Shown here: piece after piece, positions 17,138-46,132 of the stretch | Position numbering within the stretch: the first letter of the stretch is position 1 | Layout: each line of letters starts with the position of its first letter | From: an uncultured bacterium | GTDB taxonomy: Bacteria; Babelota; Babeliae; Babelales; RVW-14 | DNA length: 64,000 bases | Direction of reading: 5' to 3' | NCBI GenBank assembly: GCA_903825355.1 | Contig: CAIKAH010000002.1 | Location: 15,359-79,358 of the forward strand | Notes under the pieces: generated by a model | What the model saw: only the letters and a program-made list of their open reading frames with translations | Database searches by the model: none | Told to the model about the DNA's origin: nothing | Made by a program: the position numbers and the translations under genes

Positions 17138-17214
17138 CCGCTCTTTCTTGGCCCGTGGGGCCGGCGTCGTTCAGAACTTGCGTTCTGTATTTCGACTGAG
17201 CTCAGGATGAGCGG
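17138..17214 (+). repeat. Structured palindromic element, long variant with extra CAGAAC/GTTCTG hairpin
   Basis: CCGCTC...GGCCC-gtg-GGGCC...TTCGACTGAGCTCAGGATGAGCGG. Confidence 0.85.
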
Positions 17215-17269
17215 GTTGTATTGAATTTCTTAATTCATATTTTTTGTTAACATGCAAATTGTTTTATCT

Positions 17270-17323
17270 CCGCTCAGCCTGAGCTTGTCGAATGGCCGAA
17301 GTCTGAAAGGCGAGAAAGAGCGG
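17270..17323 (-). repeat. Structured palindromic element, inverted partner of 17138 copy
   Basis: CCGCTCAGCCTGAGCTTGTCGAA...GAAAGAGCGG on + strand. Confidence 0.85.
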
Positions 17324-17331
17324 ATTGTGTG

Positions 17332-18084
17332 TTACTCATTTTCTTTGCTTTCATTAATCAATTTAATAAACACATCCTCGAGCCGGTCTTTCTGGTGTGC
17401 CGATTTCAGATTTGCTGGTGTATCAATAAGTTTGATAACCCCTTCATCCAAAATACAAACGCGGTCAGCAAGTGCTTCGGCTTCATCCAAGTAGTGAGTT
17501 GTCAAAATAACCGTAACGCCTTCAGCTTTGAGCTCTTTAATAAGTTCCCAAACCTCGTGTCGCACATGTGGATCAAGCGCCACAGTTGGTTCGTCGAATA
17601 GCACTAATCGCGGTTTGTGAATCAGCGCGCGTGCAATTAAAAAACGCTGTTTGTACCCGCCAGAAAGTGCATCAATGGTGTTTTCTGCATAGGTGGTGAG
17701 CTCAAAGCGCTTCATGAGGACTATTACACGTGTTTTGGTTTCTTCAGCAGAGAGGCCATAAAACCGCCCAGCAAACAGGAGGTTTTGCTCGATGGTGAGC
17801 ATAGGATTTACGTTTGGCTTCTGCGGGCAAAAACCGATCATGCGGCGATAGGTGGGCACATCTTCGTAAATGCTTTTGCCTTCATGTAGAATAGTGCCTG
17901 CCGTTGGCGGATGAAGAGTCACAATAATCGATGCCAATGTTGTTTTGCCAGCCCCGTTGACGCCGAGCAGGCTTAAAATCTCGCCTTTATAAATATCAAG
18001 CGTTACGTCCTTGAGTGCCATACGAGCACGTGGGCCAACGCCATACTGCTTTGCTATCCCGCGCAGGGAAAGTAGCGTAGTCAT
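17332..18084 (-). CDS. ABC transporter ATP-binding protein
   Basis: GVNGAGKT Walker A, LSGGY signature, LVLFDEPT Walker B, TTH switch. Confidence 0.95.
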   Translation of the reverse strand: MTTLLSLRGIAKQYGVGPRARMALKDVTLDIYKGEILSLLGVNGAGKTTLASIIVTLHPPTAGTILHEGKSIYEDVPTYRRMIGFCPQKPNVNPMLTIEQNLLFAGRFYGLSAEETKTRVIVLMKRFELTTYAENTIDALSGGYKQRFLIARALIHKPRLVLFDEPTVALDPHVRHEVWELIKELKAEGVTVILTTHYLDEAEALADRVCILDEGVIKLIDTPANLKSAHQKDRLEDVFIKLINESKENE

Positions 18085-18408
18085 GGTAAACCCCTAGGGT
18101 TAAAAAATAGAAAAATAAACCAATAGCGCGCGTGTCGCCGCTATGGCGAAAATATTTTGTGGGAAAAGATAGCTCAGGAGCAATCCCGCTTTGAGAGCGC
18201 TGAGCTTATCGAGCGGTAATAATTACCGTTAAAAAGAGTTTCATGTTGGGCATCCTTCGCGCAACTGATGATTAATTAAGATTATTCAACTCTACCAGTA
18301 TTTTATTCTGCTGGCAACTGGTTGGATGAAAAATCTGGAAAAGCGCGCGTTTATGGGTGTTTTTGATGAAGTAGAAAGTTCTCGCAATGTCTGTATGGCT
18401 TTTATCCC

Positions 18409-18462
18409 CCGCTCATCCTGAGCTTGTCGAAGGACGCTGACCAAAGGGAGGTGGAAAAGCGG
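18409..18462 (-). repeat. Structured palindromic element
   Basis: CCGCTCATCCTGAGCTTGTCGAAGGACG...GTGGAAAAGCGG. Confidence 0.85.
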
Positions 18463-18480
18463 GGAAGAAATTTTTCTAGG

Positions 18481-18531
18481 TCGCTCTTCCACCCCTATCG
18501 GGGCGTGGTTCGACAGGCTCACCATGAGCGA
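18481..18531 (+). repeat. Structured palindromic element, TGGT/ACCA variant, inverted partner of 18409 copy
   Basis: TCGCTCTTCCACCCC-tatc-GGGGCGTGGTTCGACAGGCTCACCATGAGCGA. Confidence 0.85.
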
Positions 18532-18587
18532 CGATAAACCACTCATTAGGCGATAAATATTAAAAGTTCAACAGAGCCTTAGAAAAA

Positions 18588-19898
18588 TTATTTGCCGCTA
18601 ACACCGCTACTTGCAGCAGCTGCATCATCACTACTTGCGGCTACTGGTGGAGCTGCACGTCTATCACGAGCATCAAGTAGTAATTTCACCAGACCACTTC
18701 TATTGCCATCTCCATCAACGCCGCCCATACCAGCTTTACCGCGCACAATAATCTCTTCTGGTACATCGTGCAATTGGATCAATGGTGAATCAGTAACGGC
18801 TGGATCAAGACTTTCTGGCACGAATGGTGCTCGTGATTCTGTTGCTGAATACCTGCGGTAAAATCGCACTGCTTCGCTGCCACCAAGCGCGGGACGGCGA
18901 ATATTGGTGAAAGCTGCTCTCAGGTGATCTTCAGCATCTCGGTAGAGCGCAATGTTGACATGTTCAAGTGAACCAAGCTCCCAGATACCAGTATGGGTGA
19001 TGACTTGGGTTAGCTCCACGAGCAAGTCTTCAACTTCTTTAGCTGTGTACATCGAGCTAGCAATAACACCTGTTTCTTGCGAAGTTGCAAGATCAGCAAA
19101 AGTAGTAATTTCCATTTCAGGGTCATAGGTAATATTACGAGCAACAACAACATAATGGTGATCATCAAGTGGCATCTCTAGCGTGCCTGGCAAGTGATAG
19201 AGCCATTGGGGTGTTGCATCAATGTAGCGGAGGCCTTCTTTGGCAATAAACTCATTGATGGTTTGAGCGTACAGCGGTGCGGCAATGTCGTGCAAAAAGA
19301 AACGGTGCTCGCCATAAAATGGTCCTTGGATCCAAAGTGGCCAGTTGTAGAGTGATAGTTCTACTTTGTAGGCAGGAAATCTCTCGAAGGTGAGCGTGAT
19401 GATGCCATCATGATTAACGGGCGATGCTGTGACGCCAGGGTGACGTTGTAAAATCATAGCAAGCCAGTGAGTACGGTCATGTAGGTAGGCTACGCGGCGC
19501 TGTGCGTACCCTTGATAAGCGTTTCGAGGAGCTACTGTACTTGGCATCTCATTGTACATTGAACGCTCAGCGCCAGTACGCAATGAATGCCCAAACCGAT
19601 TGCCATCGCGAACCATTAATCGTTCATCGCGCATAAAATCTTGCATTTCGGGGTCGCCAAATAAATTATTCAGGCGCTCAGTAAAGGCTGTATCGTGAGT
19701 GGCAATGTTGGCTGAACCAACTAGTGCCACTGCCTGTGGTGAACTTGCCCATATTTGAAGTGCTTGTAGTTCCGCTTGTTCTCGGGGCAATATCATGCGG
19801 CTGTCTTTGACGGCTAATGATTCAGCAGCAAAGAGGGGTGCGCTTGCCAGTGCAAGGCTCAGCATGAGTGCGTTTAGCAAATATTGTTTCAATGTCAT
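18588..19898 (-). CDS. Hypothetical secreted protein
   Basis: 436-aa ORF, signal peptide ending PLFA, AGGA RBS upstream. Confidence 0.75.
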   Translation of the reverse strand: MTLKQYLLNALMLSLALASAPLFAAESLAVKDSRMILPREQAELQALQIWASSPQAVALVGSANIATHDTAFTERLNNLFGDPEMQDFMRDERLMVRDGNRFGHSLRTGAERSMYNEMPSTVAPRNAYQGYAQRRVAYLHDRTHWLAMILQRHPGVTASPVNHDGIITLTFERFPAYKVELSLYNWPLWIQGPFYGEHRFFLHDIAAPLYAQTINEFIAKEGLRYIDATPQWLYHLPGTLEMPLDDHHYVVVARNITYDPEMEITTFADLATSQETGVIASSMYTAKEVEDLLVELTQVITHTGIWELGSLEHVNIALYRDAEDHLRAAFTNIRRPALGGSEAVRFYRRYSATESRAPFVPESLDPAVTDSPLIQLHDVPEEIIVRGKAGMGGVDGDGNRSGLVKLLLDARDRRAAPPVAASSDDAAAASSGVSGK

Positions 19899-20132
19899 CT
19901 CGATATCCTTCTCTCATTTTTCAAATAAATTTACACAAAAATAGCGGGGAACGCATAAAAAGTCACCATCTATTCATGTGCTAATTATTTCTAATTGTAA
20001 TGAATATTTGCCAATGAGGTCAAGAATAGAGAATCATTGCAAATCAGCCATCAAGTGGTCGATTTACACAATCATCATCATTTTTAATTGAAAATGCCAC
20101 ATTTTTTAGCTTGTAGGGCCGAAGCTGCCTGA

Positions 20133-21287
20133 TTACCTAAACATGACTGGGGCACTAATAATGCCCTTTTTTTCGTAAGCAATTGCTCTGGTCTTGGCTT
20201 GGGCTAGTGCATCAAGAATGGTAGTTTTTTTGCTCGTCACGCCTTCGTCTTGTTCTCTAAATTCTAAGAAATAGACAGCTTTTTCTGCTAAGTCTCGTTC
20301 AATGCGTTCATAAAACGTCAATGGTAGAGATGCCCCGGCTAAATCAAGAAAGTAACAAAAGCGGTGGGTGAGAGACCACAGCAAATCGTCAAGATCATCC
20401 ATGTGTTTAATAATATTGTATTCTCCTAAGCGCTGCAGTCCTTGAGCAATAGTGGTAAACGATGACCAAACTCCCTCTGGATGCTGAGGGGGCCACATCA
20501 TTTTTCCTAGTGTTATATCATAAAAACGGATAACCATATGGCGGAGCCGTTCAATAAGTTCTTGTTTGGCTGCATCTTTTTTAACTTGCGAAATTTCGCT
20601 GTCGTAGTGTTGAGCTAGCTCTTGGGCTAAGTGTGAAACAAAGGTATCTGGTTCGCGCTTGAACAGGTCAACACTGCGCGTGAATTTGCCAAGGATCATG
20701 CTTTCGATCTGCTTTTTAATGAACTGCAGATCATTCTTTTCTGGCACATCACTGTATTCAGCAAAATACCGTTCTAAATGTTTTGGTGTAGCATCAAGCA
20801 GATTGAGTACTACATTGTCATCAACAATTTCAGCAGCTTTCATTTTGTTATAAAATAGACGCCATACAACGTACATTGCATCAGACCCAAGCTGCAGTTC
20901 GTTGCTAAAATCCATAAACTGAATAACATGCGTAGCATTTTGCGAAAGCTCCATGGCATACGATTTGTGATTATAGATCTTCGTGATAAAATTGACCAAT
21001 GAGGTATTGTATATTGCTGTTTTTGACATAGGCTCTGCAGGTTGTTCAGGTACTACCTTGTTGTTATCGTAGCTTTCCAGAAGGTTTTTAAGTGATGTTG
21101 CAGCAAAGGTTGCGGGAGACGCCTCACCAAGTACATCATTGGAATCTACAATACTTTGTAATGCACTGCTCGGGACTGTTTCCGCCGGGGTGGAAGCAGT
21201 GAGTATTGATACAAATGCAAAAACAGAAAGAGATGTAAGTACCCGTGAGGCGGGCATGATGGTTCTCATCGGTAGCGCCTTTCGCAT
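20133..21287 (-). CDS. Hypothetical secreted, mostly alpha-helical protein
   Basis: 384-aa ORF with hydrophobic leader. Confidence 0.7.
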   Translation of the reverse strand: MRKALPMRTIMPASRVLTSLSVFAFVSILTASTPAETVPSSALQSIVDSNDVLGEASPATFAATSLKNLLESYDNNKVVPEQPAEPMSKTAIYNTSLVNFITKIYNHKSYAMELSQNATHVIQFMDFSNELQLGSDAMYVVWRLFYNKMKAAEIVDDNVVLNLLDATPKHLERYFAEYSDVPEKNDLQFIKKQIESMILGKFTRSVDLFKREPDTFVSHLAQELAQHYDSEISQVKKDAAKQELIERLRHMVIRFYDITLGKMMWPPQHPEGVWSSFTTIAQGLQRLGEYNIIKHMDDLDDLLWSLTHRFCYFLDLAGASLPLTFYERIERDLAEKAVYFLEFREQDEGVTSKKTTILDALAQAKTRAIAYEKKGIISAPVMFR

Positions 21288-21420
21288 GAAAATTGGTTTA
21301 AAAAAATGATGGTTGTAAAGTAGTTGTTGAATGTGTCACAGTTCATAGCAAAGGTACAAAGGTTTTGGCAATACCTTGGTAAGATTAGCATACTTAGAGC
21401 CGTTATGGGAGTTAGATGTT

Positions 21421-22638
21421 ATGCCGCTGTATCAGTACGAATCATTAAATCGCCGAGGCGTTCGCGTTAAGGGTACGATAGACGCATCAACAATGCAAGT
21501 TGCAAAAGAGACGTTGCAGGGGCAAGGGCTTATGCCAATTTCATTGACTGAAGTTGGTGCAGAAGGGGGTGGCGGCTTTACCTTAGCACGCTTGTTTGAA
21601 AAGCCTATTGAGGCAAAAACGGTTATTCTTTTTACTAAACAGTTGGCTGTGCTCCTAAAATCTGGGGTGCCCCTCTTGCAGGCCATTGAGCTGCTTACCG
21701 AACAATTTGATGGCCGCTTTAGGCGCATGCTTATTGCTATTAAAGATGGCTTAAAGTCTGGTGAATCATTTGCCAAAGAGCTTGCGCGTTACCAAAAAGT
21801 ATTTCCTAATGTGTATATTCAGCTGGTTAAGGCTGGTGAAGCAAGTGGTAAGCTTGATTATATTTTGCTGCGATTAACTGATTATCTAGCGGGAACTGAA
21901 GAGACGAAAAAACAGATTAAAAAAGCCGTTCGCTACCCGATTGCCATGATGGGGGTTGCTCTAGCAGTTATTGTTGGCATGCTTACCAAGATGGTGCCAA
22001 GTATGCGCGGTATTTTTGATCAAGGTGGTAAGGCATTGCCGGGGCCAACGCAGTTCTTGGTCGATTGTTCTGATTTTATGTTAAATCACTATGTGGTACT
22101 TTCTGGAATCTTTTTTCTTTTAGCAGTTAGCTTTGTCTATTGGCGCTCAACGCCGCAGGGTAAGTATCAGCTTGATAGTTTATTTTTACGCTTTCCGCCG
22201 ACTGCCTATTTTTCACGCACCAAAGTGGTGGTACAGTTTAGCAAAACGCTTGGTATGCTGCTTGAGAGTGGCGTTAACTTGCCAGAGGCGCTTGATATTG
22301 TTTGTAATATTGTGGATAACAAAGTACTGACTGGCAAGCTGCGTGAAGCGCAAGACAAAATTATAAAAGAGGGTAAAATAGCTCGTTACTTAAAAGAGAC
22401 GGCCATTTTTCCTAACATTGCTAGCTACATGATTAGCACGGGTGAGCAGTCGGGGCAGCTAGCACAAATGCTTACTACCGTGGGCAATGATTATGATGTA
22501 GAACTGAAAGAATATACTGAGGCGCTCACGGGTGCGATTACCCCTGTGATGACCTTTATCTTAGTCGGTATTATCGGTTTTACCATGATGGCAATTATGT
22601 TGCCTATTATGAGTATGGGTGATTTAGCAGGATTATAG
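21421..22638 (+). CDS. gspF: Type II secretion / type IV pilus inner membrane platform protein (GspF/PilC)
   Basis: MPLYQY...G start, FTKQLAVLLKSGVPLLQA, GEASGKLD, GEQSGQL. Confidence 0.95.
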   Translation: MPLYQYESLNRRGVRVKGTIDASTMQVAKETLQGQGLMPISLTEVGAEGGGGFTLARLFEKPIEAKTVILFTKQLAVLLKSGVPLLQAIELLTEQFDGRFRRMLIAIKDGLKSGESFAKELARYQKVFPNVYIQLVKAGEASGKLDYILLRLTDYLAGTEETKKQIKKAVRYPIAMMGVALAVIVGMLTKMVPSMRGIFDQGGKALPGPTQFLVDCSDFMLNHYVVLSGIFFLLAVSFVYWRSTPQGKYQLDSLFLRFPPTAYFSRTKVVVQFSKTLGMLLESGVNLPEALDIVCNIVDNKVLTGKLREAQDKIIKEGKIARYLKETAIFPNIASYMISTGEQSGQLAQMLTTVGNDYDVELKEYTEALTGAITPVMTFILVGIIGFTMMAIMLPIMSMGDLAGL

Positions 22639-23103: not shown

Positions 23104-23115
23104 TTAATAAAATCC

Positions 23116-23234
23116 CCGCTCTTCCTCCGCCTTGCAGGCTTCGTCCTTCGATCCAGCCGTCGCTCTTACGAGCTATGGCGGACAGGCAGGCTCCCTGGGC
23201 GCCGAAGCCTTGGCGTAGGAGGCAGGAGGAGCGG
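23116..23234. repeat. Composite palindromic element with CCGCTC/GAGCGG termini but a different interior
   Basis: CCGCTCTTCCT...GCCGTCGCTCTTACGAGCTATGGCGG...CGCCGAAGCCTTGGCG...AGGAGGAGCGG. Confidence 0.6.
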
Positions 23235-23263
23235 ACTTTGCTGGTTTTGTTAGTGTAATTTTT

Positions 23264-23920
23264 TTGGGTGTTATGAATCAAAAAATAGATGCGATTTGTT
23301 TCCCCTTCGCTCATCCTGAGCTTGTCGAAAAACAGAACGGTAGTTCTGAACGACGCCCCGTTAGGGGTGGAAGAGCGAAGCAAGCATTTACCTTAGTAGA
23401 AATGCTAGCCGTGATTTTTCTTGCTTCGTTGCTGTTGAGCATGATTTTGCCACTGCTTAATCGCCGGCAAAAGCCAGAAGAGTCATGGGAAACACTCCAT
23501 GAACAGCTAAACCAAATTGCTTCCTTTGCACGGCAAGAAGCGCTTATAAAGCGCAAGGTTTATCGCCTTGTATTTGAGCAGGTGCCAAACCGTGAAGGCA
23601 AAGTGTTTGTTGAGCAAGAGCAGCCCGATCCTGAGCACGCAGAGAAGAAAATGTATATTGCTACTAAGTCAGATTACCAGCTTACTTCTTTAACCCTGAC
23701 GCATGGCAGAACCATACGTGCTGTGTATGTTGGTCGGCAAAATGTGCTTGGGGACCAGGAAAAGCAAGCATACTGTTATGTCATACCCGATGGCATGATG
23801 CAACCAGTGGTGCTGCAGATTGCAAAAAAAGATAAATTTGGTGAAGAAGTTGTATCGTTTCAGTTAAACCCCTTTTTGGGAAGTTTTAATCGCCATGAAG
23901 GTAAGTTTAAACCTGAATAG
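23264..23920 (+). CDS. Minor pseudopilin (GspH-like) with palindromic element in its leader
   Basis: A|FTLVEMLAVI prepilin motif; position in operon after gspG. Confidence 0.8.
   Translation: MGVMNQKIDAICFPFAHPELVEKQNGSSERRPVRGGRAKQAFTLVEMLAVIFLASLLLSMILPLLNRRQKPEESWETLHEQLNQIASFARQEALIKRKVYRLVFEQVPNREGKVFVEQEQPDPEHAEKKMYIATKSDYQLTSLTLTHGRTIRAVYVGRQNVLGDQEKQAYCYVIPDGMMQPVVLQIAKKDKFGEEVVSFQLNPFLGSFNRHEGKFKPE
23305..23380 (-). repeat. Structured palindromic element, long variant, intragenic
   Basis: CTTCGCTC...CTGAGCTTGTCGAA...CAGAAC-ggta-GTTCTG...CCCC-gtta-GGGG...GAGCGAAG. Confidence 0.9.
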
Positions 23921-26451: not shown

Positions 26452-27990
26452 GTGAAGCTTGAGACTAAAGTTGGTTTTTTTATCCTCGCGGCTGTCGGGG
26501 TGTTTTTGTATTTAAGTATCAATATTCGTGCCTTGCGTCTTGATAAAGATCGCTACAATGAGTACAAGGCATATTTTGATGATACATCGGGCCTCAATAA
26601 AAAGGCTCCCGTCAAAATTGCTGGTGTCGATGTTGGCTGGGTAGAGCAAATCAGCTTGCTCAGCGATGGTAAAGCAGAAGTGATAATGCTTATTGATAAG
26701 CATATTCGGTTGGCAAAAAATGCTCATGCCATGATTCACCAAGATGGCTTGATTGGGGTCAAGACATTGGAAATTGACCCCGGCGACCCGTCAACGGGAG
26801 TGATGCTTGCTGGTAGTACTCTTGCTATGCCAGGCAAAAGCCCTGCAACGGTTGGAGAACTACTTGATAATGTGAGGGATATTACAGCAACTATTCAGGA
26901 TATCACAACGTCATTTAAAAGTGTCTTTGCCTCACGGCGTGGTGAAGAGCAGATGCGTACTACGCTTGATGCCGTTTCTAAAGCGTCTGCCCGTATTGCC
27001 GATTTTTCTGAAGTGCTAGAGCGAACCATTAAAATTAACGAATCGCGTATTAATCAAATTGTTACCAATTTAAATGCAACCATTGCTGATTTTCAAAAAG
27101 AGCAGGTGGCTGCAAAAGTTTCTAACACCCTCAGCAAAGCTTCTGATGCTATGGAAAACTTCTCAGACGCGTCTATCCAAGGGCGTGAAACGCTACGCAG
27201 CGCTGGTGAAGTGGTTGATAAGATTAATACCGGTAAAGGCGTGATAGGCAAGCTCATTAATGAAGATGAAACCTATACCGACTTGAAAAAGACGATCCGT
27301 GGCCTTAAAGATTATATCAACAAAACACAATCACTTATGCTCAGTGTTGATATGCATAGTGAATCGATGCTGCGCAACACCAATAGCAAAGGGTATTGTG
27401 AGCTGCGTCTGCGTCCAAGTGCTGACTACTTCTATCAAATCCAATTGGTTACCGATGAGCAAGGTAGTGTCAGCCGTGAGCGCGTACGGCAAACGTATTT
27501 TGATGCAAGTGGCGTGGAGCTTAAGCCTGCTACGCTTACCAATGTGCCAGCATGGGCACGGCTTGAATATGCGCAAGACAAAGAGCGTGTTATTCAGCGT
27601 AAAAATGACATCATGTTTGGCCTCCAGTTTGGTAAGCGCTTTGACCGTCTTGCTTTCCGTGTTGGTATGTTTGAAAATGCTTTTGGTGGCGCTGTTGATT
27701 GGTATGTTCCGCTGCAGACAGATTCGTTTCATTGGATTACTTCGCTTGAAGCGTTTGATTTTAGCGGTTATAAGCGCTTTGATACTACTGATCACCGTCC
27801 GCATGTGAAGTGGATTAATAAAGCGTTCTTCATGAAGAATATTTACACCTGCTTTGGCCTTGATGACATTTATGGCAAGCGTGGTGCTAACCCATTCTGG
27901 GGCGGCGGCCTACGCTTTAATGATGATGATTTGAAATACTTTTTGTCTTCATTAAGTGGCGCTGCTAAATCAAGTGCTGGAGGCCGGTAG
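26452..27990 (+). CDS. MCE/MlaD family protein, long form with helical middle and beta-rich C-terminus
   Basis: N-terminal TM; FDDTSGLNKKAPVKIAGVDVGWV; IHQDGLIGVKTLEIDPG. Confidence 0.9.
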   Translation: MKLETKVGFFILAAVGVFLYLSINIRALRLDKDRYNEYKAYFDDTSGLNKKAPVKIAGVDVGWVEQISLLSDGKAEVIMLIDKHIRLAKNAHAMIHQDGLIGVKTLEIDPGDPSTGVMLAGSTLAMPGKSPATVGELLDNVRDITATIQDITTSFKSVFASRRGEEQMRTTLDAVSKASARIADFSEVLERTIKINESRINQIVTNLNATIADFQKEQVAAKVSNTLSKASDAMENFSDASIQGRETLRSAGEVVDKINTGKGVIGKLINEDETYTDLKKTIRGLKDYINKTQSLMLSVDMHSESMLRNTNSKGYCELRLRPSADYFYQIQLVTDEQGSVSRERVRQTYFDASGVELKPATLTNVPAWARLEYAQDKERVIQRKNDIMFGLQFGKRFDRLAFRVGMFENAFGGAVDWYVPLQTDSFHWITSLEAFDFSGYKRFDTTDHRPHVKWINKAFFMKNIYTCFGLDDIYGKRGANPFWGGGLRFNDDDLKYFLSSLSGAAKSSAGGR

Positions 27991-29192
27991 TGATTTACCG
28001 CGAAGCAGAAAGACAAATACTGAAGCGGGCAAAATATAACCCCGTTATTTTTGTAACGGGGCCCCGACAGTGTGGCAAAACAACACTGGTTAAAAATGTT
28101 TTTCCTCATTATGCATACGTAAACTTAGAAGAAGATGAGGTGCGCCAGCGTATTGAATCAGATCCGTATGCATTTTTTGCAGAAGTAGAAAAAGGGTCGG
28201 GAGTGATTATTGATGAGTTTCAATATCTACCTGGCATTACTTCACGCATAAAAGTGATTCTTGACGAAATGATAGGCAAGCGAGATCACCCATTAGGCTT
28301 CTATATCTTAACTGGTTCGCAAAATTTTCTCATGATGGAACAGGTTACACAGACGTTGGTGGGAAGAGCCGCGTTGGTTGAGATGTTGCCATTATCGCTC
28401 AGTGAAGCCAAACCAACAGATGCTCTTGAAGAGGTATTGTTCAGGGGGCTATATCCTCGGCCCTTCGGCTATAAAACCGATTATGATGAAATTTTCCAAT
28501 GGGCCAACGCCTATGTTTCTTTTTATCTTGAGCGTGATGCCAGAGCATTAAGAAAAGAAATTAATATTTCTTTGTTTTATAAGTTTATTAAGCTCTTGGC
28601 TGGTCGTGTTGGCCAAGTACTTAATATCAACGCCCTGGCAACTGATTGTGGTATCGACACCAAGACGGCGCATGATTGGCTTGGCGTTTTAGAAGCATGC
28701 TTTGTCATAGTATTGATCCAACCATTTTATAATAATTTTAGTCGACGGCTTATTAAGTCGCCCAAAATCTATTTTGTCGACACGGCACTGGTCTGTTTTC
28801 TTTTAGGCATCACTACCCCAGCTGAGGTGCTTGCCAACAAGCTCTACGGAGCTCTGTTTGAAAACATGATCATCATGGAGCAAATCAAAGCAAGGACAAA
28901 TGTTGGCAGAGATAATAATGTCTATTTTTGGCGCGATGAAAAGCAGCATGAACTTGATATGCTCCTTCATTACGCGAACCATCTGCGAGCAGTAGAGGTC
29001 AAAGCAACCAAAACAATAAAAGCTTCACTGGCAGATAATATTTCGCAGTGGGCTGCATCAGTTAAAGAACATACCGAAACAGAGCGCTATGTTATTTATG
29101 GTGGCGAAGAGGATACGGTTGTCGATGGTGTTGCCTGGGCAAGCTGGCGTCGTTGTTGGTTAGTTAACCAAGACGCTTCTCCGCAGCACTAA
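27990..29192 (+). CDS. AAA_14 ATPase with DUF4143 domain
   Basis: GPRQCGKTT, IIDEFQ, LTGSQN, IKSPKIYFVDT, FWRD...ELD. Confidence 0.9.
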   Translation: MIYREAERQILKRAKYNPVIFVTGPRQCGKTTLVKNVFPHYAYVNLEEDEVRQRIESDPYAFFAEVEKGSGVIIDEFQYLPGITSRIKVILDEMIGKRDHPLGFYILTGSQNFLMMEQVTQTLVGRAALVEMLPLSLSEAKPTDALEEVLFRGLYPRPFGYKTDYDEIFQWANAYVSFYLERDARALRKEINISLFYKFIKLLAGRVGQVLNINALATDCGIDTKTAHDWLGVLEACFVIVLIQPFYNNFSRRLIKSPKIYFVDTALVCFLLGITTPAEVLANKLYGALFENMIIMEQIKARTNVGRDNNVYFWRDEKQHELDMLLHYANHLRAVEVKATKTIKASLADNISQWAASVKEHTETERYVIYGGEEDTVVDGVAWASWRRCWLVNQDASPQH

Positions 29193-29293
29193 CCATTTTT
29201 TCTTGTTTGTTCCTATCTTCTTGTAATGAGTAACTGCTTTTTGTTACGTCATGGTACAGATCTCATTTAAAAGTATAAGAAGTATTTACACAA

Positions 29294-29366
29294 CCGCTCC
29301 TCCTGAGCCTGTCGAAAAACAGAACGTAAGTTCTGAACGATGCCTCCGTAGGAGGTAGAAGAGCGG
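29294..29366 (-). repeat. Structured palindromic element, long variant
   Basis: CCGCTCCTCCTGAGCCTGTCGAA...CAGAAC-gtaa-GTTCTG...CCTCC-gta-GGAGG...GAGCGG. Confidence 0.9.
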
Positions 29367-29386
29367 CAACAACTATTAGGAATTTC

Positions 29387-30943
29387 ATGAAAACATGCAA
29401 AGCAATCCTTGCTGTACTGTTATTTTTTGCTGCCTGTCGGGCAGAACTTGCAACGGGCCGGTCATTCTTTTTACCGCGTCCTGCGTGGTCTGATCATGCA
29501 CAAATGCTTGATCGTGGCTTAGTGGCTATCAAGAACAATGGGCGTTTCAGTTTTGGCTCAGTGGTTTCTTACCAATCATCAACGCATGGTGATCGTTTTG
29601 CGAAGTACTTTCTTCCTGGAGGTAAAAATAACTTAGTGGTGAAGGGGGCTAATGCGGCGGGGCCTTGTGATATTTCTGGTACGTGGCTACAAATTGTTGG
29701 GTTGAACCCGACCTTGGGAGCAGGCGGTCATGATCTTGCCCAATTGTTCAATGAATATAGCAGTGAAATTAGTATTAAGCCTCAGCTAGAGCGTACCGAT
29801 GCAACAGTGCAATTGCGCTATCATAATCGCCTTGGCAAGATGCCGTGGTCATTTGCTGTTGGCCTGCCAGTTTCGTACATGCAGACCAAGATGAATTTGG
29901 TTGAATCTAATGTGCAGAATAATTATACAATGCGGAATGCTAATCGTGCAGATGGGGTGCCCAATTTTACTGATACAGCATTAATAATTCCCGTACAAAA
30001 AGCTGTCTCATTATCAGCAATAGAATCTTTTAGTAACCAAAATAAGCATTTTGGGAAAATTAGTAATCAAGCACTGGATGCTAAGGGGATGGGGGATGTA
30101 AGCCTTGATTTACGCATGGGCATATGTGATGAACTGACTATTGGTGTACGAGGAGAATTGCCAACATCACCAAGGGGAACAGCAGAATATATGTTTGAAC
30201 CACTAATTGGTAATAATGGCCATGCAACGTTTGCTGCATATGTTTTGGCTGGTAAGCAAATGATAGAATACAAAAAAATAGCAATTGGGCTGCATGTGAA
30301 TGCACAATGGCAGATGCAGTTTGCTGGTAGAGAGTTGAGAACATTTGATTTGTTAGAGGCTGGTTCATGGAGTAGGTACTTATTGCTTGATGATACTGTT
30401 AACAATGCAGGATATGCAGAGCCTGGTGTTAATTTTTTAACGCGAATAGCACGTATTAACATTGTAAATAAGGCAACTGGGGGGATGGTATTAGATTTGC
30501 GACATGAAAAGGGTTTTATAGTTTCAATTGGCTACCAGGCTTATGCACGTGAGCAAGAAAAACTTAGGTTGCAGTCACCCTTCCCCGCTAGTGTTTTTGT
30601 AATTCGTGCGGTAAGCCCCAATCCAGGTGATGCTATAACGGATATGGAAGTTGTTCTGCCTCAAGATATTCGACTTAAAAATCACTTACTTTATAATCAG
30701 GGCAATATATTTCTTGCGCCTAACCCAGCAATTAACCAAAGCATAAGTAATAATGATCTTGATTTAAGCTCAGGATGTATGCCGAGTTATTTTTCTCACC
30801 AATTAATGGCAAGCTTAGCCTACACAGGGATGATGCAAAAAAATCCTGTGCATTTTGAACTCGGTTCTCAATATGAAATTATTCGACAAAGCGCAGATAC
30901 AAATTTTTGGTCTTTATTTGCGGCCTTAACTATAAAAATGTGA
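29387..30943 (+). CDS. Hypothetical secreted protein, possibly an outer-membrane beta-barrel
   Basis: Signal peptide; many amphipathic beta-strand-like segments; terminal WSLFAALTIKM. Confidence 0.6.
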   Translation: MKTCKAILAVLLFFAACRAELATGRSFFLPRPAWSDHAQMLDRGLVAIKNNGRFSFGSVVSYQSSTHGDRFAKYFLPGGKNNLVVKGANAAGPCDISGTWLQIVGLNPTLGAGGHDLAQLFNEYSSEISIKPQLERTDATVQLRYHNRLGKMPWSFAVGLPVSYMQTKMNLVESNVQNNYTMRNANRADGVPNFTDTALIIPVQKAVSLSAIESFSNQNKHFGKISNQALDAKGMGDVSLDLRMGICDELTIGVRGELPTSPRGTAEYMFEPLIGNNGHATFAAYVLAGKQMIEYKKIAIGLHVNAQWQMQFAGRELRTFDLLEAGSWSRYLLLDDTVNNAGYAEPGVNFLTRIARINIVNKATGGMVLDLRHEKGFIVSIGYQAYAREQEKLRLQSPFPASVFVIRAVSPNPGDAITDMEVVLPQDIRLKNHLLYNQGNIFLAPNPAINQSISNNDLDLSSGCMPSYFSHQLMASLAYTGMMQKNPVHFELGSQYEIIRQSADTNFWSLFAALTIKM

Positions 30944-40787: not shown

Positions 40788-40804
40788 TTAGCGCTTAACA
40801 AATT

Positions 40805-40847: not shown

Positions 40848-40990
40848 CTGTAGCAAAAAATTATCCCCGTCCGATTCCTGATTCTTCAGGCAAGGGGAAA
40901 AGGCATCCCAGCCAGGGCTTGTTGTATTTGCCGCATATTCCATGGTAAGCTTGCCGGGGTATGGTGAGGTAAGAAAATTGAGGGGCTGCG

Positions 40991-42595
40991 ATGCAAAAAA
41001 TTTGTTTAGATCTGAAAGAGTTCAAAACAATCCGCCAGCAAGGAGGGTTGTACGTTGACAAGACAAAGTATATCTATGAAATTTTTGGTAACGGCTCGTA
41101 TTTTTTTCTTGCTCGTCCCCGTCGTTTTGGTAAATCATTGCTCTGTGCCACGTTAGCAGAATTGTTTGCAGGTAACCGCCATCTTTTTAAAGGCTTGTGG
41201 ATTGATGGCAGTGATTGGGCGTGGAAAAAGCATCCGGTTATTCGCTTGGATATGAGCAAGGCGGCTTCGCCTGTAGCAACACCAGAAGAAGTTCGCGGCT
41301 ATATGGTAGATTTGCTCAACAGCAGCGCAAAGCATCTTGGACTACCTGCAAACACCCTCAGGCAGGGTACACCAATGGCAATGCTGAGTGATTTAATTGC
41401 GCAGGCTAAAGAAGCTTTTGGTGAGCAGGTGGTGGTTATCATCGATGAATACGATAAACCACTGCTTGATGTGATTCAAGATCGCTCTCGCTATACGGCA
41501 ATTCAAGAGGAGTTGAGCGCTTTTTATAGTCAGCTCAAGCCGGCCGAAGAAGATATCAGGTGTGTGTTGATTACGGGCGTATTTAAGTTTACTAAAACCT
41601 CAATATTTTCTGGCCTTAATAATTTGAATGATATCACCTTTAAGCCGAGGGCTGCAGCATTATTGGGGTACACAGAGCAAGAGATTAGAGCGGTTTTTGC
41701 AGACCATCTAGCTGCGGTGGCTGCTGCGTATAAAAAAACGGTCGACGAAATGATGCTTGTCCTTCGTGACAGGTATAACGGGTATTTTTTTGGCGTGAAT
41801 TTGGCAAGTAATGAACTTTCTGCTGGGGTGTATAATCCATATGCTATGAATTATGTTTTTGCAGAGCAGCAGCAGCTAGACCGGTGGTTTAGTTCAGGCT
41901 CGCCGTCAGCCTTAATTAAAAAATTAACCAGCGAACAATTTGAAGCGCTAGAGCCAGCGCGTTTGACAATGTCTTTTTCAGCATTAGAAACATCATGCAG
42001 CCCAGATGATATGACTGCATTGAGTATGTTGTACTATGCTGGGTATCTGACGCTTAAGCACTGCTTTAATAAAAAAGTGACGCTTGGCTTTCCTAATGCA
42101 GAGGTGGCAGGTGCATTTTCAGATGCCTTACTGCCTGCGTTACTGCAAAAAAGTGTTTTTTTTGTTGCGGGGCTTATTGATGAAATACACGACCTGTTTT
42201 GCCAAGAGCGCTTAGATGATTTGAAACAGCTCCTCAATGACGCCCTGGCGCCTGTAGCTTATCCAGTACTAGCACAGCCAGCTGCAAGCGCAGAGCTGCT
42301 GCCAGAGCGCGTGTACCAAATAGCATTTTATTACTTATTTATTGCGAGCAAAATGCCTACAACGTTAGAGGATATGACTAATCGTGGCCGCATTGATATT
42401 GTCGTAGAAGGGCCTCGGTCATTTTATATTTTTGAGCTTAAAATCAATGAGCCAGCGTCAGTAGCGATTGCCCAAATTAAAGAAAAAGAGTACACGGCAA
42501 AGTTTCGGCACAAGGGTAAACAGCTTTATGCCGTTGGCATCTCGATAGACACAGCAAAGCGCTCAGTGGCAGAGCTGATGTGGGAACGTTTTTAG
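40991..42595 (+). CDS. AAA-ATPase-like domain plus PD-(D/E)XK nuclease (PDDEXK_9) protein
   Basis: YVDKT, RPRRFGKSL, IIDEYDKP, NGY.F, YNP; C-terminal GRIDIVV...IFELK. Confidence 0.9.
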   Translation: MQKICLDLKEFKTIRQQGGLYVDKTKYIYEIFGNGSYFFLARPRRFGKSLLCATLAELFAGNRHLFKGLWIDGSDWAWKKHPVIRLDMSKAASPVATPEEVRGYMVDLLNSSAKHLGLPANTLRQGTPMAMLSDLIAQAKEAFGEQVVVIIDEYDKPLLDVIQDRSRYTAIQEELSAFYSQLKPAEEDIRCVLITGVFKFTKTSIFSGLNNLNDITFKPRAAALLGYTEQEIRAVFADHLAAVAAAYKKTVDEMMLVLRDRYNGYFFGVNLASNELSAGVYNPYAMNYVFAEQQQLDRWFSSGSPSALIKKLTSEQFEALEPARLTMSFSALETSCSPDDMTALSMLYYAGYLTLKHCFNKKVTLGFPNAEVAGAFSDALLPALLQKSVFFVAGLIDEIHDLFCQERLDDLKQLLNDALAPVAYPVLAQPAASAELLPERVYQIAFYYLFIASKMPTTLEDMTNRGRIDIVVEGPRSFYIFELKINEPASVAIAQIKEKEYTAKFRHKGKQLYAVGISIDTAKRSVAELMWERF

Positions 42596-42624
42596 CTGTT
42601 CAAAAAATAGAACATAATCGAATG

Positions 42625-42882
42625 TTAGGCGTGTCCAATGCCTGAAGAATCTGGGAGGCGGAAAAAGTCATCCCATACCTCTTCGTAATACTCTTCATAC
42701 TCATCTTCTTCTGCGTAGAAAAAGACTGGGTCATAGCTAGGCTCGTAGATGGCTTCGTACTCGGTGGAATAGGTACAGAGGAGGGGTCCGCTCTTCCACC
42801 CCTGCGGGGCGTGGTTCGACTGGCTCACCAGGAGCGGGAGGGTGCAAATGATCGGATTTTGTAGGTCAGATGGTGTGTTCAT
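42625..42882 (-). CDS. Possible small acidic Tyr/Glu-rich protein containing a palindromic element
   Basis: 85-aa ORF; biased C-terminus YAEEDEYEEYYEEVWDDFF; N-terminal third is the repeat read in-frame. Confidence 0.3.
   Translation of the reverse strand: MNTPSDLQNPIICTLPLLVSQSNHAPQGWKSGPLLCTYSTEYEAIYEPSYDPVFFYAEEDEYEEYYEEVWDDFFRLPDSSGIGHA
42788..42837 (+). repeat. Structured palindromic element, TGGT/ACCA variant
   Basis: CCGCTCTTCCACCCC-tgc-GGGGCGTGGTTCGACTGGCTCACCAGGAGCGG. Confidence 0.9.
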
Positions 42883-42992
42883 AAAGTGCCTAAATCGAGC
42901 GTGCTAATCAGTTCGTGTAAGAGAAATATACCGCCCAATTTGGTTTTATCAATCAAAAAATACAAAATAATTAAATTCATTCAAGTAGAATT

Positions 42993-43048
42993 TATTTTAT
43001 CTGTTCAACCCGGTTTAAAAATACTTTTAGTCGACGATAATCGTTGCC
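42993..43048. repeat. 56-bp direct repeat, copy 1 (duplicate of 3' end of gene 44286..45041)
   Basis: TATTTTATCTGTTCAACCCGGTTTAAAAATACTTTTAGTCGACGATAATCGTTGCC; 2 mismatches to 44287..44342. Confidence 0.9.
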
Positions 43049-43055
43049 CGAGAAC

Positions 43056-44192
43056 CTATAGCGGCTGGGCGCCTTCTTGCAGCAAATCTAGATATTTTTT
43101 ATATACAAATTGTCGGTTGCGCTTGCTTCCTGTTTGTTCAGTTAATATGCCTGCCGCAACAAGCTCTTTAAGTACACTGTTAGCGGTAGGGAATGAGATT
43201 GCTAAGCGCTGAGCGAGTGCCGTAGCTGAAGTGAGGGGGTATTGTGGTAATGTTTCAAATGCATGCAATACGGTTGCGCGGACGTTTTGGGCAAAAAGCT
43301 CTTTCTTGTCCTGCTCAATGCATTGGACTAAGCTTGTAATACGCTGGCTAGCATCTTGTGCTGCTTGCAGCGTCGCATTAAGAAAAAAAGTAATCCACTG
43401 CTCATAATCGCCTTGTTCACGTACCATCATAAGTCGATCGTAATACTCCTGCCGTGCGCGTTTAAAATGGTAGCTGATATAGAGCACTGGGTCAGTAATA
43501 ACCTGTTTCCACTGTAAATAAAAGATAATGAGCAGCCTGCCAATACGGCCATTGCCATCGAGGAATGGGTGGATAGTTTCGAATTGGTAGTGCATAAGGG
43601 CGGCCGCAATTAGTGGATGCTCCGTTGCTTGATGCATATACATTTCAAGATTGCCCATTAATGGCAGAAGCTCTTCTGGAGGGGGCGGTACATAAGCTGC
43701 TTGCTCTAGGCTGCAGCCAGCAAAACCAATCCAATTTTGTGAGCGACGAAATTCGCCAGGCGTTTTATCGCCGCCTCGCACTCCCTGCATTAAAATACTA
43801 TGGAGTTCTTTAATAAGTCTAATCGAAAGTGGAATGGTAGCCAGGCGGCTATTGCCATAGTTAAGGGCGTGAATGTAATTTACTACTTGTTGTACATCGT
43901 TTACATGTGCCGGGACTATACCTTGTTCAAACGAGAGTAAACTTTCTAGCGACGCCTGTGTTCCTTCAATTTGGGAACTAAGTAGAGCTTCCCGTTTGAC
44001 GTACATTGCCAAATACAAGTCTTTATTAGGTAAAACATGCGCTTTTGTATTTAGCTCGTGTAGAATTTTTACGGTTTTATCCAGGAGTTCTTGTAACGAG
44101 GGTGTAATGAAAAGTGATGGAGGAAGGGGCGTTGGGATAAACGCCTTATACCCTTTGAGTTGTGATCGGTAGTGGCCTGAACGGGGAATCAT
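43056..44192 (-). CDS. Fic family protein (N-terminal Fic/DOC, C-terminal HTH)
   Basis: EALLSSQIEGT; HYQFETIHPFLDGNGRIGR canonical Fic motif. Confidence 0.95.
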   Translation of the reverse strand: MIPRSGHYRSQLKGYKAFIPTPLPPSLFITPSLQELLDKTVKILHELNTKAHVLPNKDLYLAMYVKREALLSSQIEGTQASLESLLSFEQGIVPAHVNDVQQVVNYIHALNYGNSRLATIPLSIRLIKELHSILMQGVRGGDKTPGEFRRSQNWIGFAGCSLEQAAYVPPPPEELLPLMGNLEMYMHQATEHPLIAAALMHYQFETIHPFLDGNGRIGRLLIIFYLQWKQVITDPVLYISYHFKRARQEYYDRLMMVREQGDYEQWITFFLNATLQAAQDASQRITSLVQCIEQDKKELFAQNVRATVLHAFETLPQYPLTSATALAQRLAISFPTANSVLKELVAAGILTEQTGSKRNRQFVYKKYLDLLQEGAQPL

Positions 44193-44285
44193 AGTCTGCT
44201 CCTTCGATTTTTAATAAGACTAGCAAAAACTAGTTCTTATTAAAAATATTTTAAATAAAGAGCGGTTTTTATTAAAAATGCTGCC

Positions 44286-45041
44286 CTATTTGATCTGTTC
44301 AACCCGGTTTAAAAATACTTTTAGTCGGCGATAATCGTTGCCAGAGAGCAGGGCAAATCCATGGCTGACTTCTTCCAAAAAGCTGGGTGAGAGGAGATTT
44401 TTGGCCTTAACCGTCCGAATGACGGCGAGGAGCAATTCATCTAGGTTCTGGATCGCGTTAGAAAAGCCGTAGAGTACTTCTAGAAATTGAGCATCAGCAA
44501 AGAATTGTGTAGCGATATCAGTTGATGCTTCGCTAATGAATGCATGAATTTTTGGTGGGTTTGGGGGCACGGCAAAAATGATTTGTTTATTCGCTCTTCT
44601 ACCTCCTTCGGAGGCATCCTTCGACAGGCTCAGGAGGAGCGAATCAGCTGCATCCATATCACCCAGCTCACCAGGAGCGGAGAGTTGCATCGCTCTTCCT
44701 GAGCTTGTCGAAGGACGCGGCTGTAAGCCGTGGAAAAGCGATGCGGGTATATATCCACACGCTTGTACCGTAAACGTTGTTTTTAAAAAAGCAAAAATCT
44801 GTGGCTGCTCGCGTTCAAGTTCTTCTTCCGTTTTCTGGTAAGCGAACGGCGTGCGCGATGGATCCATGGAGCCGGTTTGAATACCGGTAACAAGACCAAG
44901 CACTTGTAGCTCTTTGTCTTGGATGCTAACCAATGAGCCAAAGGTAGGAAATTGTTTCCATTCCCAGCATTGAGCAGTGTAGTGGTCAAGCGAAGATTCG
45001 ATTACTTCAGCAAAAAAGGGATGTTTGTTTTGGCTGGTCAT
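44286..45041 (-). CDS. HAS-barrel-like conserved protein with in-frame palindromic insertion
   Basis: AEVIESS, PTFGSLV, EEELEREQPQIFAFLKT, PPNPPKIH resemble bacterial HAS-barrel proteins (recalled, not searched); about 50 aa internal segment is repeat-derived. Confidence 0.7.
   Translation of the reverse strand: MTSQNKHPFFAEVIESSLDHYTAQCWEWKQFPTFGSLVSIQDKELQVLGLVTGIQTGSMDPSRTPFAYQKTEEELEREQPQIFAFLKTTFTVQACGYIPASLFHGLQPRPSTSSGRAMQLSAPGELGDMDAADSLLLSLSKDASEGGRRANKQIIFAVPPNPPKIHAFISEASTDIATQFFADAQFLEVLYGFSNAIQNLDELLLAVIRTVKAKNLLSPSFLEEVSHGFALLSGNDYRRLKVFLNRVEQIK
44287..44342. repeat. 56-bp direct repeat, copy 2 (the 3' end of the HAS-barrel-like gene)
   Basis: TATTTGATCTGTTCAACCCGGTTTAAAAATACTTTTAGTCGGCGATAATCGTTGCC. 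Confidence 0.9.
44590..44643 (+). repeat. Structured palindromic element, intragenic
   Basis: TTCGCTCTTCTACCTCC-ttc-GGAGGCATCCTTCGACAGGCTCAGGAGGAGCGAA. Confidence 0.9.
44687..44744 (-). repeat. Structured palindromic element, intragenic, inverted partner of 44590 copy; partial third copy at 44664-44680
   Basis: GCATCGCTCTTCCTGAGCTTGTCGAAGGACGCGGCT-gta-AGCCGTGGAAAAGCGATGC. Confidence 0.9.
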
Positions 45042-45702
45042 GGGGCTCTACAAAGTTTTTAATAAAGGTTGTTCGATGAATGGCACAGGGTCCGTGCTCT
45101 TTGAGCGCTGCAATATGTTCGGCAGTACCGTACCCTTTGTTTTGCATAAAGTTATAGGCTGGAAATTGTGCTGAAAGCTCTTCCATCAATCGGTCGCGTG
45201 TTACTTTTGCAACAATTGAGGCCGCTGCAATAGAAGGGGAGAGCGATTCGCCATAGTTAAAATAATGGCATTCTAGGCCTGTAGGCTTTTCTTCAGCAGC
45301 AATTTTGAGCGGCATGGCATCTACCAGGACATATTTAAGCAGTGCGGGGTCGCATGGTAATGTTTGCATCAGATTCAGGTAGGCATGCTTCATGGTGAGT
45401 AGCGTTGCTTGGTAAATATTTATCGTATCAATGGTCTTGTGATCAGCAACTGCAGTTGTCCATGCGCAGTGCTCAGTAATCCAGGAAAATGCTTTTTCGC
45501 GCTGTGCTTTGGTCATTATTTTTGAGTCTTTGAGCATTGGCTGGTTGGTGTATAACGGCAGTATGACTGCACCTACGACTACCGGGCCGGCAAGGCACCC
45601 ACGGCCAGCTTCATCAATACCCATAGCACGTTTTTGCGTGGCCCAGGCTTGCGTTTCAAAGTATAATTTTTTTGGCGATTCTACGCTTCTATTCATATTC
45701 AT
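45007..45702 (-). CDS. rnhB: Ribonuclease HII
   Basis: GIDEAGRGCLAGPVV, LKDSK, VLVDA, SIAAASIVAKVTRD, NKGYGT; start reset to ATG 45702 because the ORF-track extension to 45795 is repeat and GIY-YIG sequence. Confidence 0.95.
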   Translation of the reverse strand: MNMNRSVESPKKLYFETQAWATQKRAMGIDEAGRGCLAGPVVVGAVILPLYTNQPMLKDSKIMTKAQREKAFSWITEHCAWTTAVADHKTIDTINIYQATLLTMKHAYLNLMQTLPCDPALLKYVLVDAMPLKIAAEEKPTGLECHYFNYGESLSPSIAAASIVAKVTRDRLMEELSAQFPAYNFMQNKGYGTAEHIAALKEHGPCAIHRTTFIKNFVEPHDQPKQTSLFC

Positions 45703-45726
45703 GTAAGCAACTAGTTTGTTAAGTCC

Positions 45727-45776
45727 CCGCTCACCCTGAGCTTGTCGAAGGGCGCCCCGTAGGGGTGGAAGAGCGG
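45727..45776 (-). repeat. Structured palindromic element overlapping GIY-YIG 3' end and providing its TGA
   Basis: CCGCTCACCCTGAGCTTGTCGAAGGGCGCCCC-gta-GGGGTGGAAGAGCGG. Confidence 0.95.
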
Positions 45777-46060
45777 GTATTATAAGTTTTTGCAAATGTA
45801 CTAATATCTTGCCATTTACCTTCTATAAGAGCACGTTTTTTGCTTCTACTCCATCCCTTTATTTGTCTTTCTGCTTGAAAAGCTTCATTGCGTGAAGGCA
45901 TAAGTTGCTGAAAAACTAATTGAACAGGCCGTCTACTTGCAGTCCAACAGTACTGAAAAGCCACGACATTATGCTCAGCAATTCTTTTACGCATATCATC
46001 AGTGTGCCCTACATAAAAAGAGCCATCGCTGCACTCAAGAATATAAACTGAAAATTTCAT
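45731..46060 (-). CDS. Stand-alone GIY-YIG nuclease (UPF0213-like)
   Basis: VYILECSDGSFYVGHT..MRKRIAEHN, RRPVQLV, EAFQAERQIKGWSRSKKRAL. Confidence 0.95.
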   Translation of the reverse strand: MKFSVYILECSDGSFYVGHTDDMRKRIAEHNVVAFQYCWTASRRPVQLVFQQLMPSRNEAFQAERQIKGWSRSKKRALIEGKWQDISTFAKTYNTRSSTPTGRPSTSSG

Positions 46061-46082
46061 TATAATTCATCGATAACAGGAG

Positions 46083-46132
46083 CCGCTCTTCCACCGCTTC
46101 GCGGCGCCCTTCGACAGGCTCAGGGTGAGCGG
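46083..46132 (+). repeat. Structured palindromic element upstream of GIY-YIG gene
   Basis: CCGCTCTTCCACCGC-ttc-GCGGCGCCCTTCGACAGGCTCAGGGTGAGCGG. Confidence 0.95.

Follow-up and report, generated by a model that had tools for sequence, protein, structure and literature searches.

Dispersed hairpin repeats in a Dependentiae genome and their putative partner, a small Ssn-like GIY-YIG nuclease

When short palindromic repeats lie scattered between, and sometimes within, the genes of a reduced bacterial genome, which protein, if any, do they serve? The question is raised by a stretch of 64,000 nucleotides (hereafter, the window) from an uncultured Dependentiae bacterium (assembly GCA_903825355.1, contig CAIKAH010000002.1, positions 15,359 to 79,358). 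In this window, an initial annotation had listed 11 full copies and one partial copy of a three-stem element, and had proposed that a protein recognises its fold in the manner of REP elements. The repeat family is real and well supported. We judge, with a probability of roughly 0.7, that its members are the cognate hairpin repeats of a small Ssn-like GIY-YIG nuclease, whose binding and cleavage of the repeats we infer by analogy with known Ssn proteins. Repeats and nuclease together are most likely a variant of the Ssn/SRM-type system, not a new kind of element.

The genome to which the window belongs (designated G000) measures 1.39 Mb in 57 contigs, has a G+C content of 42% and is 95.5% complete. 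Its PGK matches that of a named Dependentiae genome (E = 1e-51) more closely than those of four other phyla (about 1e-30), in keeping with a place in that phylum but no proof of it; a tblastn search of the genome with a locus from a named Dependentiae returned nothing. A covariance model derived from 54 distinct short-form copies, aligned from the whole genome, identifies 129 copies of the element genome-wide (E ≤ 0.01). Drawing on copies elsewhere in the genome, the model recovers 11 of the 11 full copies reported for the window, all where they had been placed, and the reported partial copy is the 3' half-element at 44662-44680 (Table 1). One copy had been missed, an elaborated form of 123 nt at 23114-23236 (+), for which a related copy occurs at the same place in G002, a genome of the same genus. 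Allowing one mismatch at most, the core TCGACWRGCTC has 11 matches in the window where 1.9 would be expected, and no shuffle out of 100 yields as many; the match at 18202 is fortuitous, and two mismatches separate the copy at 17193 from the core. Each element has a closing stem, CGCTC/GAGCG, prolonged by complementary flanks particular to each copy, an inner hairpin whose sequence varies between copies, and an almost invariant 13-nt loop, TTCGACARGCTCA, held by a short stem whose versions are TGG/CCA, TCC/GGA, CCC/GGG and GCC/GGC. This layout, as first described, is seen when copies are set side by side, and the consensus reads nnnCCGCTCTTCC...GAGCGGnnn. The extra CAGAAC/GTTCTG hairpin ascribed to three copies, which defines the long form, occurs in the window in exactly those beginning at 17135, 23304 and 29291. 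Rfam returns no match over the window at the gathering score, and none on the elements even at E ≤ 10. A full-text literature search with core DNA words and derived peptides (GAGCTTGTCGAA, LSLSKG, FDKLR and others) returned unrelated primer matches only. Three copies (C2:7662-7718, C14:1444-1500 and C52:24698-24754) are identical, including ~15 nt of flank on each side, and probably stem from a recent duplication of larger extent or from the collapse of a repeat at contig ends.

Covariation, also claimed at the outset, extends to all three stems. With a three-helix structure of 18 pairs imposed on the alignment of the 54 copies, 91.8% of cells are paired compared with 78.1% in shuffles, 0 of 500 of which reach the observed value, a control that overstates significance because the copies are paralogues. 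When the 3' partners were slid as a further control, only 47-56% of cells paired. Cells changed on both sides number 150, against 56 expected, and each helix has at least three pairs so changed. Examples include pairs 31-47 and 32-46 (CG:29/GC:24), pair 17-25 (CG:35/UA:14/GC:3) and pair 4-55 (CG:39/UA:14). The fold is convincing all the same, in view of the slid control and of how many different pair types occur. Folding with DNA parameters gives the same three-way junction for both strands of one copy (z about -2.1 to -2.4), and the long form and doublet are far more stable than their shuffles (z about -5.2). To illustrate, the doublet at 18406-18534 forms one long hairpin as single-stranded DNA (z = -5.25).

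A covarying fold might act in RNA, as a 3'-end stabiliser, terminator or regulatory structure, with the nuclease link being secondary. Many copies lie just past stop codons or between the genes of operons (e.g., 17135-17326 and 18406-18534), those inside genes are certainly transcribed, and mismatch counts of 35 G.T versus 8 A.C, which favour the loop-sense strand, amount to an enrichment of G.U-compatible wobbles on one strand. Such a role is nonetheless quite improbable, as the two orientations are equally frequent across the 129 copies (65 versus 64) and neighbours alternate, so that any transcript has both senses. Neither the T run searched for after the elements nor, as noted above, an Rfam match was found. 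Conservation of motif and nuclease gene across phyla is unexpected for a host RNA signal, and RNA is not bound by the published Ssn enzymes (PMC11893778). The analogy with Ssn and the equal use of both orientations speak for DNA as the likelier folded strand.

The arrangement of the copies points to the partner gene. Among neighbours less than 600 bp apart, 29 pairs are head-to-head, 21 are tail-to-tail and only one is on the same strand. Twenty-four of the head-to-head pairs are tight doublets with an AT-rich spacer of 8-20 nt, and since six of these doublets have one common spacer, TAAAGAGCTTTCTG, the doublet itself must have multiplied. Between '-+' neighbours the gap measures 8-20 nt or else 300-331 nt, and the three pairs with the longer gap each enclose a small GIY-YIG gene. 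GIY-YIG genes, in other words, sit exactly where tight doublets have their spacer. The genome encodes four such small genes, and a 517-aa open frame contains a fifth match. Three of the four are flanked on both sides by inverted copies of the element, each no more than 110 bp away, and the fourth is a pseudogene with a copy on one side only. The chance of a random 218-bp interval being flanked on both sides is 2.9e-4 per gene. In the window protein (45731-46060), PF01541 covers residues 3-75 of 109 and no other domain is present; an NCBIfam search with this nuclease gave no family match.

In several respects, the family reprises the REP, BIME and REPIN elements of Enterobacteria and Pseudomonas, which are likewise short, GC-rich, imperfect palindromes, mostly intergenic, alternating in orientation and spreading as inverted doublets, with a partner gene flanked by repeats and a presumed single-stranded DNA hairpin as substrate. 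This likeness might suggest classical REP/REPIN elements copied by a RAYT protein (IS200/IS605 Y1 family), with the GIY-YIG genes being bystanders in repeat-rich spots, and the genome does have one match to Y1_Tnp (PF01797). That single match, however, is an IS200-like pseudogene with an internal TAG stop, covering 73 of 121 profile positions and with no element alongside, and an explanation by RAYT fails for this reason. In addition, the GTAG head conserved in REPs has no counterpart here, the consensus containing neither GTAG nor CTAC; the loop is conserved here but not in REPs; and the partner has a GIY-YIG fold where RAYT has an HUH fold. GIY-YIG flanking moreover recurs in at least six lineages, with the motif type tracking the GIY-YIG tree. 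We regard copying by a RAYT as very unlikely. The fold first proposed is borne out by covariation; alternating orientation, doublets, a copy number that varies within one genus and empty sites are REP-like as well, and the protein that would recognise the fold is likely to be a small GIY-YIG nuclease instead of a RAYT.

A closer precedent is the Ssn family, ~94-residue single-domain GIY-YIG proteins that cut single-stranded DNA beside a hairpin repeat called NTS, generalised as SRM (Chenal et al. 2025, Nat Commun, PMC11893778). These proteins are inactive on double-stranded DNA, RNA and the opposite strand, and their cleavage near NTS hairpins was shown in vitro, whereas nuclease activity here is predicted from sequence. 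Ssn genes are typically flanked by the repeat on both sides, the repeat being otherwise dispersed in hundreds of copies; the authors noted that the architecture resembles an insertion sequence and left mobility open (PMC11893778). Most of these features recur in our case, including a single-domain GIY-YIG protein of about 94-110 residues, a gene between inverted hairpin repeats of 20-50 nt, dispersal of the same repeats in tens to hundreds of copies, enrichment in symbionts and intracellular bacteria, and an equal orientation of the gene relative to its flanking hairpins (as between the NTS-flanked locus L150 and the window unit). In its 5' part, the motif loosely resembles that of NTS (CGTCATTCC in NTS, CGCTCATCC here). 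Unlike NTS, in which the stem is conserved, the elements conserve the 13-nt loop and the closing stem while the inner stem covaries, and Dependentiae copies carry one or two added hairpins that give a three-way junction. The possibility, raised initially, of an already characterised family with a known mobiliser is thus half realised: the kind of system has been published, with a motif that differs from this one.

Forty related genomes were compared with G000 (41 in all). By model search the element is scattered unevenly through the family and hardly occurs elsewhere in the order, ranging within the genus from 0 to 117 copies (outside G000, 38 and 48 in two genomes and 0 in the third). Homologues of the window nuclease with 44-68% identity occur in 14 of the 40 genomes (15 with G000), and nearly all are flanked by inverted hairpins of like design in lineage-specific versions, some having a further hairpin inside the loop, between TTCGATAC and ACTCA, and others having different loop words. 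Nine of the 13 genomes with elements possess a nuclease of this type (clade A), compared with 6 of the 28 lacking elements (Fisher p = 0.005). More distant paralogues in the same phylum (34-37% identity, E about 1e-10) are flanked by canonical NTS-type hairpins, such as CGTCGTTCCCGCGAAGGCGGGAATCCAG, which ties the protein group to the published Ssn (PMC11893778). Canonical NTS/SRM-type hairpins flank this second GIY-YIG clade at L150-L153 (in G010, G013, G023 and G033), L163, L164, L169 and L170, and therefore two nuclease-hairpin specificities coexist in Dependentiae, Dehalococcoidia and Elusimicrobia.

Empty sites at orthologous loci, a comparison first proposed from the window alone, exist in related genomes. 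Between rnhB and the LexA-like gene, the three other genomes of the genus (G001, G002 and G003) have an uninterrupted spacer of ~30-50 nt, and only G000 has the hairpin-gene-hairpin block of ~510 bp. Since none of the three has a doublet there, the whole block must have arrived together. Direct repeats of 24 nt enclose a second such unit, on contig C9. G000 and G002 share the tail-to-tail pair of the ABC-transporter spacer, which G003 lacks. At this site, the orthologous copies (17135-17217 in G000, L179 in G002) differ in the presence or absence of the CAGAAC/GTTCTG hairpin and in inner-stem sequences that are wholly replaced, which suggests conversion between copies and not point mutation. 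The leader of a pseudopilin gene (23264-23920) contains an element in G000, with no in-frame start codon between the element and the A|FTLVE site, and also in G002, while the G001 orthologue has a normal 10-residue leader and no element. At only 70-80% identity, these spacers have diverged too far within the genus for the exact ends of single copies and doublets to be traced.

Homing endonucleases of the GIY-YIG type are well established, and the gene could in principle be a free-standing enzyme of that kind that invades existing doublets, the repeats being its target, multiplied by other means, and not its product. Its position, exactly that of a doublet spacer, would fit, as would the retention of repeats without the gene in G002 and G040. 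The empty rnhB site, with arrival of the whole block at once, speaks against such an invasion, as does a protein of one ~95-residue domain, which lacks the DNA-binding extension that known GIY-YIG homing enzymes have. The hairpins flanking the gene, furthermore, change together with the protein clade. We consider homing unlikely.

The association extends beyond this phylum. A 22-nt core, TTCGACARGCTCASSNNGAGCG, was found at more than 120 loci in Dehalococcoidia/SAR202, Sphingomonadales, Acidobacteriota, Binatia, Burkholderiales, Elusimicrobia and Dependentiae, and the arrangement shared across lineages is CGCTC-N-xyz-TGAGCYTGTCGAA-x'y'z'. In other phyla, it is mostly a two-stem hairpin, often in inverted pairs, and the 3-bp stem adjoining the loop pairs in 95-99% of 155 copies (52-77% in shuffles) through six different triplets. 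The nuclease was searched for in 15 of the genomes holding the core, and homologues 46-55% identical and flanked by the same core were found in Propionivibrio, Binatia, Dehalococcoidia, Sphingomonas, Chakrabartia and two small Dependentiae-like genomes. Same-core flanking is thus seen in Dependentiae, Sphingomonadales, Betaproteobacteria, Binatia and Dehalococcoidia, a cross-phylum link with about 50% protein identity and a near-identical 13-nt loop. Among homologues elsewhere, in other genomes and phyla, 23 are flanked by the same core and 6 by the loop-insert version. In a maximum-likelihood tree, flanking motif type tracks protein clades (clustering equalled by 0 of 500 label shuffles), with NTS-flanked proteins forming their own clade (100/99 support). 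An exhaustive HMMER search of 1.84 billion proteins returned 1,161 representative clusters at E ≤ 1e-10. In 57 of the best 150 representatives, the predicted protein end is a translation of the motif (PELVE, STSSG, LRQAQ, FDKLR or LSLSK). Gene calls for nuclease homologues (P0002-P0060; L154, L159 and L029) often extend into the flanking repeats, giving tails such as PELVEG, STSSG, LRQAQGER and FDKLR, and such repeat-derived tails are probably a widespread annotation artefact in many phyla.

Several observations weigh against taking the repeats as the cognate hairpins of an Ssn-like nuclease. The published SRM pattern, HGTCWYN(0-2)YYVSBRHN(0-5)WNVSBRGN(0-2)RNCYNB, fits 0 of the 129 copies; its four matches in the whole genome all fall outside the elements. 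The window nuclease belongs to a clade apart from the NTS-flanked proteins, with 34-37% identity to the NTS-flanked paralogues, and the two are joined in an unresolved polytomy. The nearest solved structures are UPF0213 (YhbQ-type) proteins (PDB 1ZG2, E = 6e-13; 1YWL, E = 2e-11), equal in size to the window protein; in the tree, UPF0213-like sequences fall outside its clade, and no association with repeats was found on record for them in the literature examined. Fully 26% of the copies lie in open reading frames, housekeeping genes included, as opposed to 2% for NTS (PMC11893778). G002 (38 copies, ~94% complete) and G040 (13 copies) lack a clade-A nuclease gene, and six genomes with the gene yield no match to the element model. 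In five of those six, a variant hairpin or inverted repeat does adjoin the gene, on both sides in G004, G019 and G037, on the 3' side only in G029, and on the 5' side only in G036, where the locus is cut; the sixth, G016, shows a weak hairpin resemblance only. The duplications at the insertion sites are unequal, being 5 nt (CATGT) for the window unit and 24 nt for the C9 unit, and are therefore unlike those of a classical transposase. Lastly, the mismatch counts given above do not single out one folding strand, since the conserved A14.C28 mismatch becomes a wobble when the opposite strand is read.

As cognate hairpins of an Ssn-like nuclease, the repeats would work as follows. Either strand, once single-stranded, would fold at each ~50-nt copy, the closing stem CGCTC/GAGCG and a short covarying stem presenting the 13-nt loop; in the Dependentiae lineage, a second covarying hairpin (in the long form, a third) would be added on the 5' arm to give the three-way junction. 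The ~95-residue nuclease, encoded between two inverted copies, would recognise the loop and closing stem on single-stranded DNA and nick near the hairpin, as Ssn does on NTS. The hairpin-gene-hairpin block would be a mobile unit, with the head-to-head doublets (8-20-nt spacer) and single copies as its gene-less relatives, and these would have spread into intergenic regions and, where the frame was kept open, into genes. Mode of copying and any host benefit, such as control of incoming single-stranded DNA as for the Neisseria NTS, we likewise infer. A bolder reading, possible but doubtful in our estimation, would make the block an autonomous mobile element of an unrecognised class. A minimal single-strand GIY-YIG nuclease would then fill the role of an HUH or DDE enzyme, doublets and single hairpins would be its non-autonomous offspring, and the element would cross phyla and could settle in frame inside essential genes.

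Coding sequence is avoided by the repeats, although not excluded, since 33 of the 129 copies (26%) are located at least 30 nt inside open reading frames of at least 120 codons, frames that make up 88% of the genome. Pfam domains spanning copies include MutL (a pair, in the linker), HisRS (a pair), iPGM, PGK, DapF and acyl-CoA synthetase. The PGK copy takes the place of a surface segment about as long as itself, with no clean net insertion. Comparable insertions are those of the Rickettsia palindromic elements (RPEs), which Ogata et al. (2000) are said to have described from Alphaproteobacteria as repeats of about 100-150 bp. These are also palindromic repeats of an obligate intracellular bacterium that lie in frame within protein genes without destroying them; RPEs are not known to be linked to a repeat-flanked nuclease gene. 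The copies in MutL, HisRS, PGK and a prepilin leader, as read from their sequences, show an apparently RPE-like tolerance of repeat-encoded peptides in a reduced genome. MITEs, such as the Correia elements of Neisseria and the QMITEs of Coxiella, share with the present family their short, non-autonomous nature, inverted ends, relation to a gene-bearing parent and contribution of peptide segments to proteins. They differ in that no DDE transposase parent exists here, that target-site duplications have no fixed length in the two cases above, and that the 'terminal repeats' are themselves structured hairpins. The Coxiella QMITEs (PMC5896051) were set aside as candidates because organism and motif differ.

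Table 1. Element copies and the associated nuclease gene in the window (window positions; C2, contig coordinates).
Feature	Position	Strand	Context
Element, long form	17135-17217 (model match 17159-17217; C2:32493-32575)	+	Left member of tail-to-tail pair; 19 nt upstream of ABC-2 permease start
Element	17267-17326	-	Right member of tail-to-tail pair; 6 nt downstream of ABC ATPase stop codon
Element	18406-18465	-	Left half of head-to-head doublet; 12-nt AT-rich spacer
Element	18478-18534	+	Right half of head-to-head doublet with 18406-18465
Elaborated element, 123 nt	23114-23236	+	Two further hairpins inserted in loop region; absent from initial annotation
Element, long form	23304-23381 (model match 23307-23378)	-	In frame, in leader-peptide part of pseudopilin gene 23264-23920 (+)
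Element, long form	29291-29369 (model match 29294-29366)	-	Intergenic, between 27990-29192 and 29387-30943
Element	42785-42840	+	Intergenic, between AAA-ATPase/PD-(D/E)XK gene and Fic gene
Element	44588-44645	+	Behind truncated HerA-like (HAS-barrel) open reading frame
Partial element, 3' half only	44662-44680	+	CCCAGCTCACCAGGAGCGG
Element	44687-44744	-	
Element	45724-45779	-	3' side of GIY-YIG gene; supplies its last 15 codons and stop codon
GIY-YIG nuclease gene (predicted), single domain, 109 residues	45731-46060	-	Pfam PF01541, E = 8e-15
Element	46080-46135	+	5' side of GIY-YIG gene; 19 nt upstream of ATG (gap 46061-46079)
Hairpin-gene-hairpin block, ~510 bp, with 22 and ~80 nt of flank	45703-46215	.	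Between rnhB and LexA-like gene; CATGT at both junctions

Among the element copies lie genes for a Fic/DOC protein (43056-44192, -), a predicted AAA-ATPase with a PD-(D/E)XK nuclease domain (40991-42595, +) and an AAA_14/DUF4143 ATPase (27990-29192, +), which may form a small island of defence or accessory genes. The open reading frame at 44286-45041 (-) retains only the N-terminal HAS-barrel (HerA-type) domain, the rest crossing two element copies and the partial copy, and looks like the remnant of a truncated herA-like gene. Elsewhere in the window, a 1726-residue open reading frame (10236-15416, -) consists of ~207/618-nt repeats, and at least four paralogous genes with 66-nt leucine-rich-type repeats are clustered at 58000-61800; the repeat protein and the cluster look like candidate host-interaction proteins. 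Outside the window, tandem open reading frames for eukaryote-style C2H2 zinc-finger proteins (HTGEKPF-type linkers) adjoin the IS200-like tnpA pseudogene (C7:1-2600).

These results touch on two questions that the Ssn study left open, namely the diversity of nuclease-hairpin pairs and the mobility of the hairpin-gene-hairpin unit. On the first, they offer another recognition design, clearly distinct, in which a covarying stem carries a conserved 13-nt loop and a three-way junction is optional; it is tied to a large protein clade of more than 1,100 representative clusters in several phyla. On the second, the empty sites are clean evidence for arrival of the unit as a whole in one species of a genus. 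They also suggest an explanation for the spurious peptide ends (PELVEG, LSLSKG, FDKLR and STSSG) common among predicted proteins across many phyla. In tool building, the pair would give a new sequence specificity for the cutting of single-stranded DNA.

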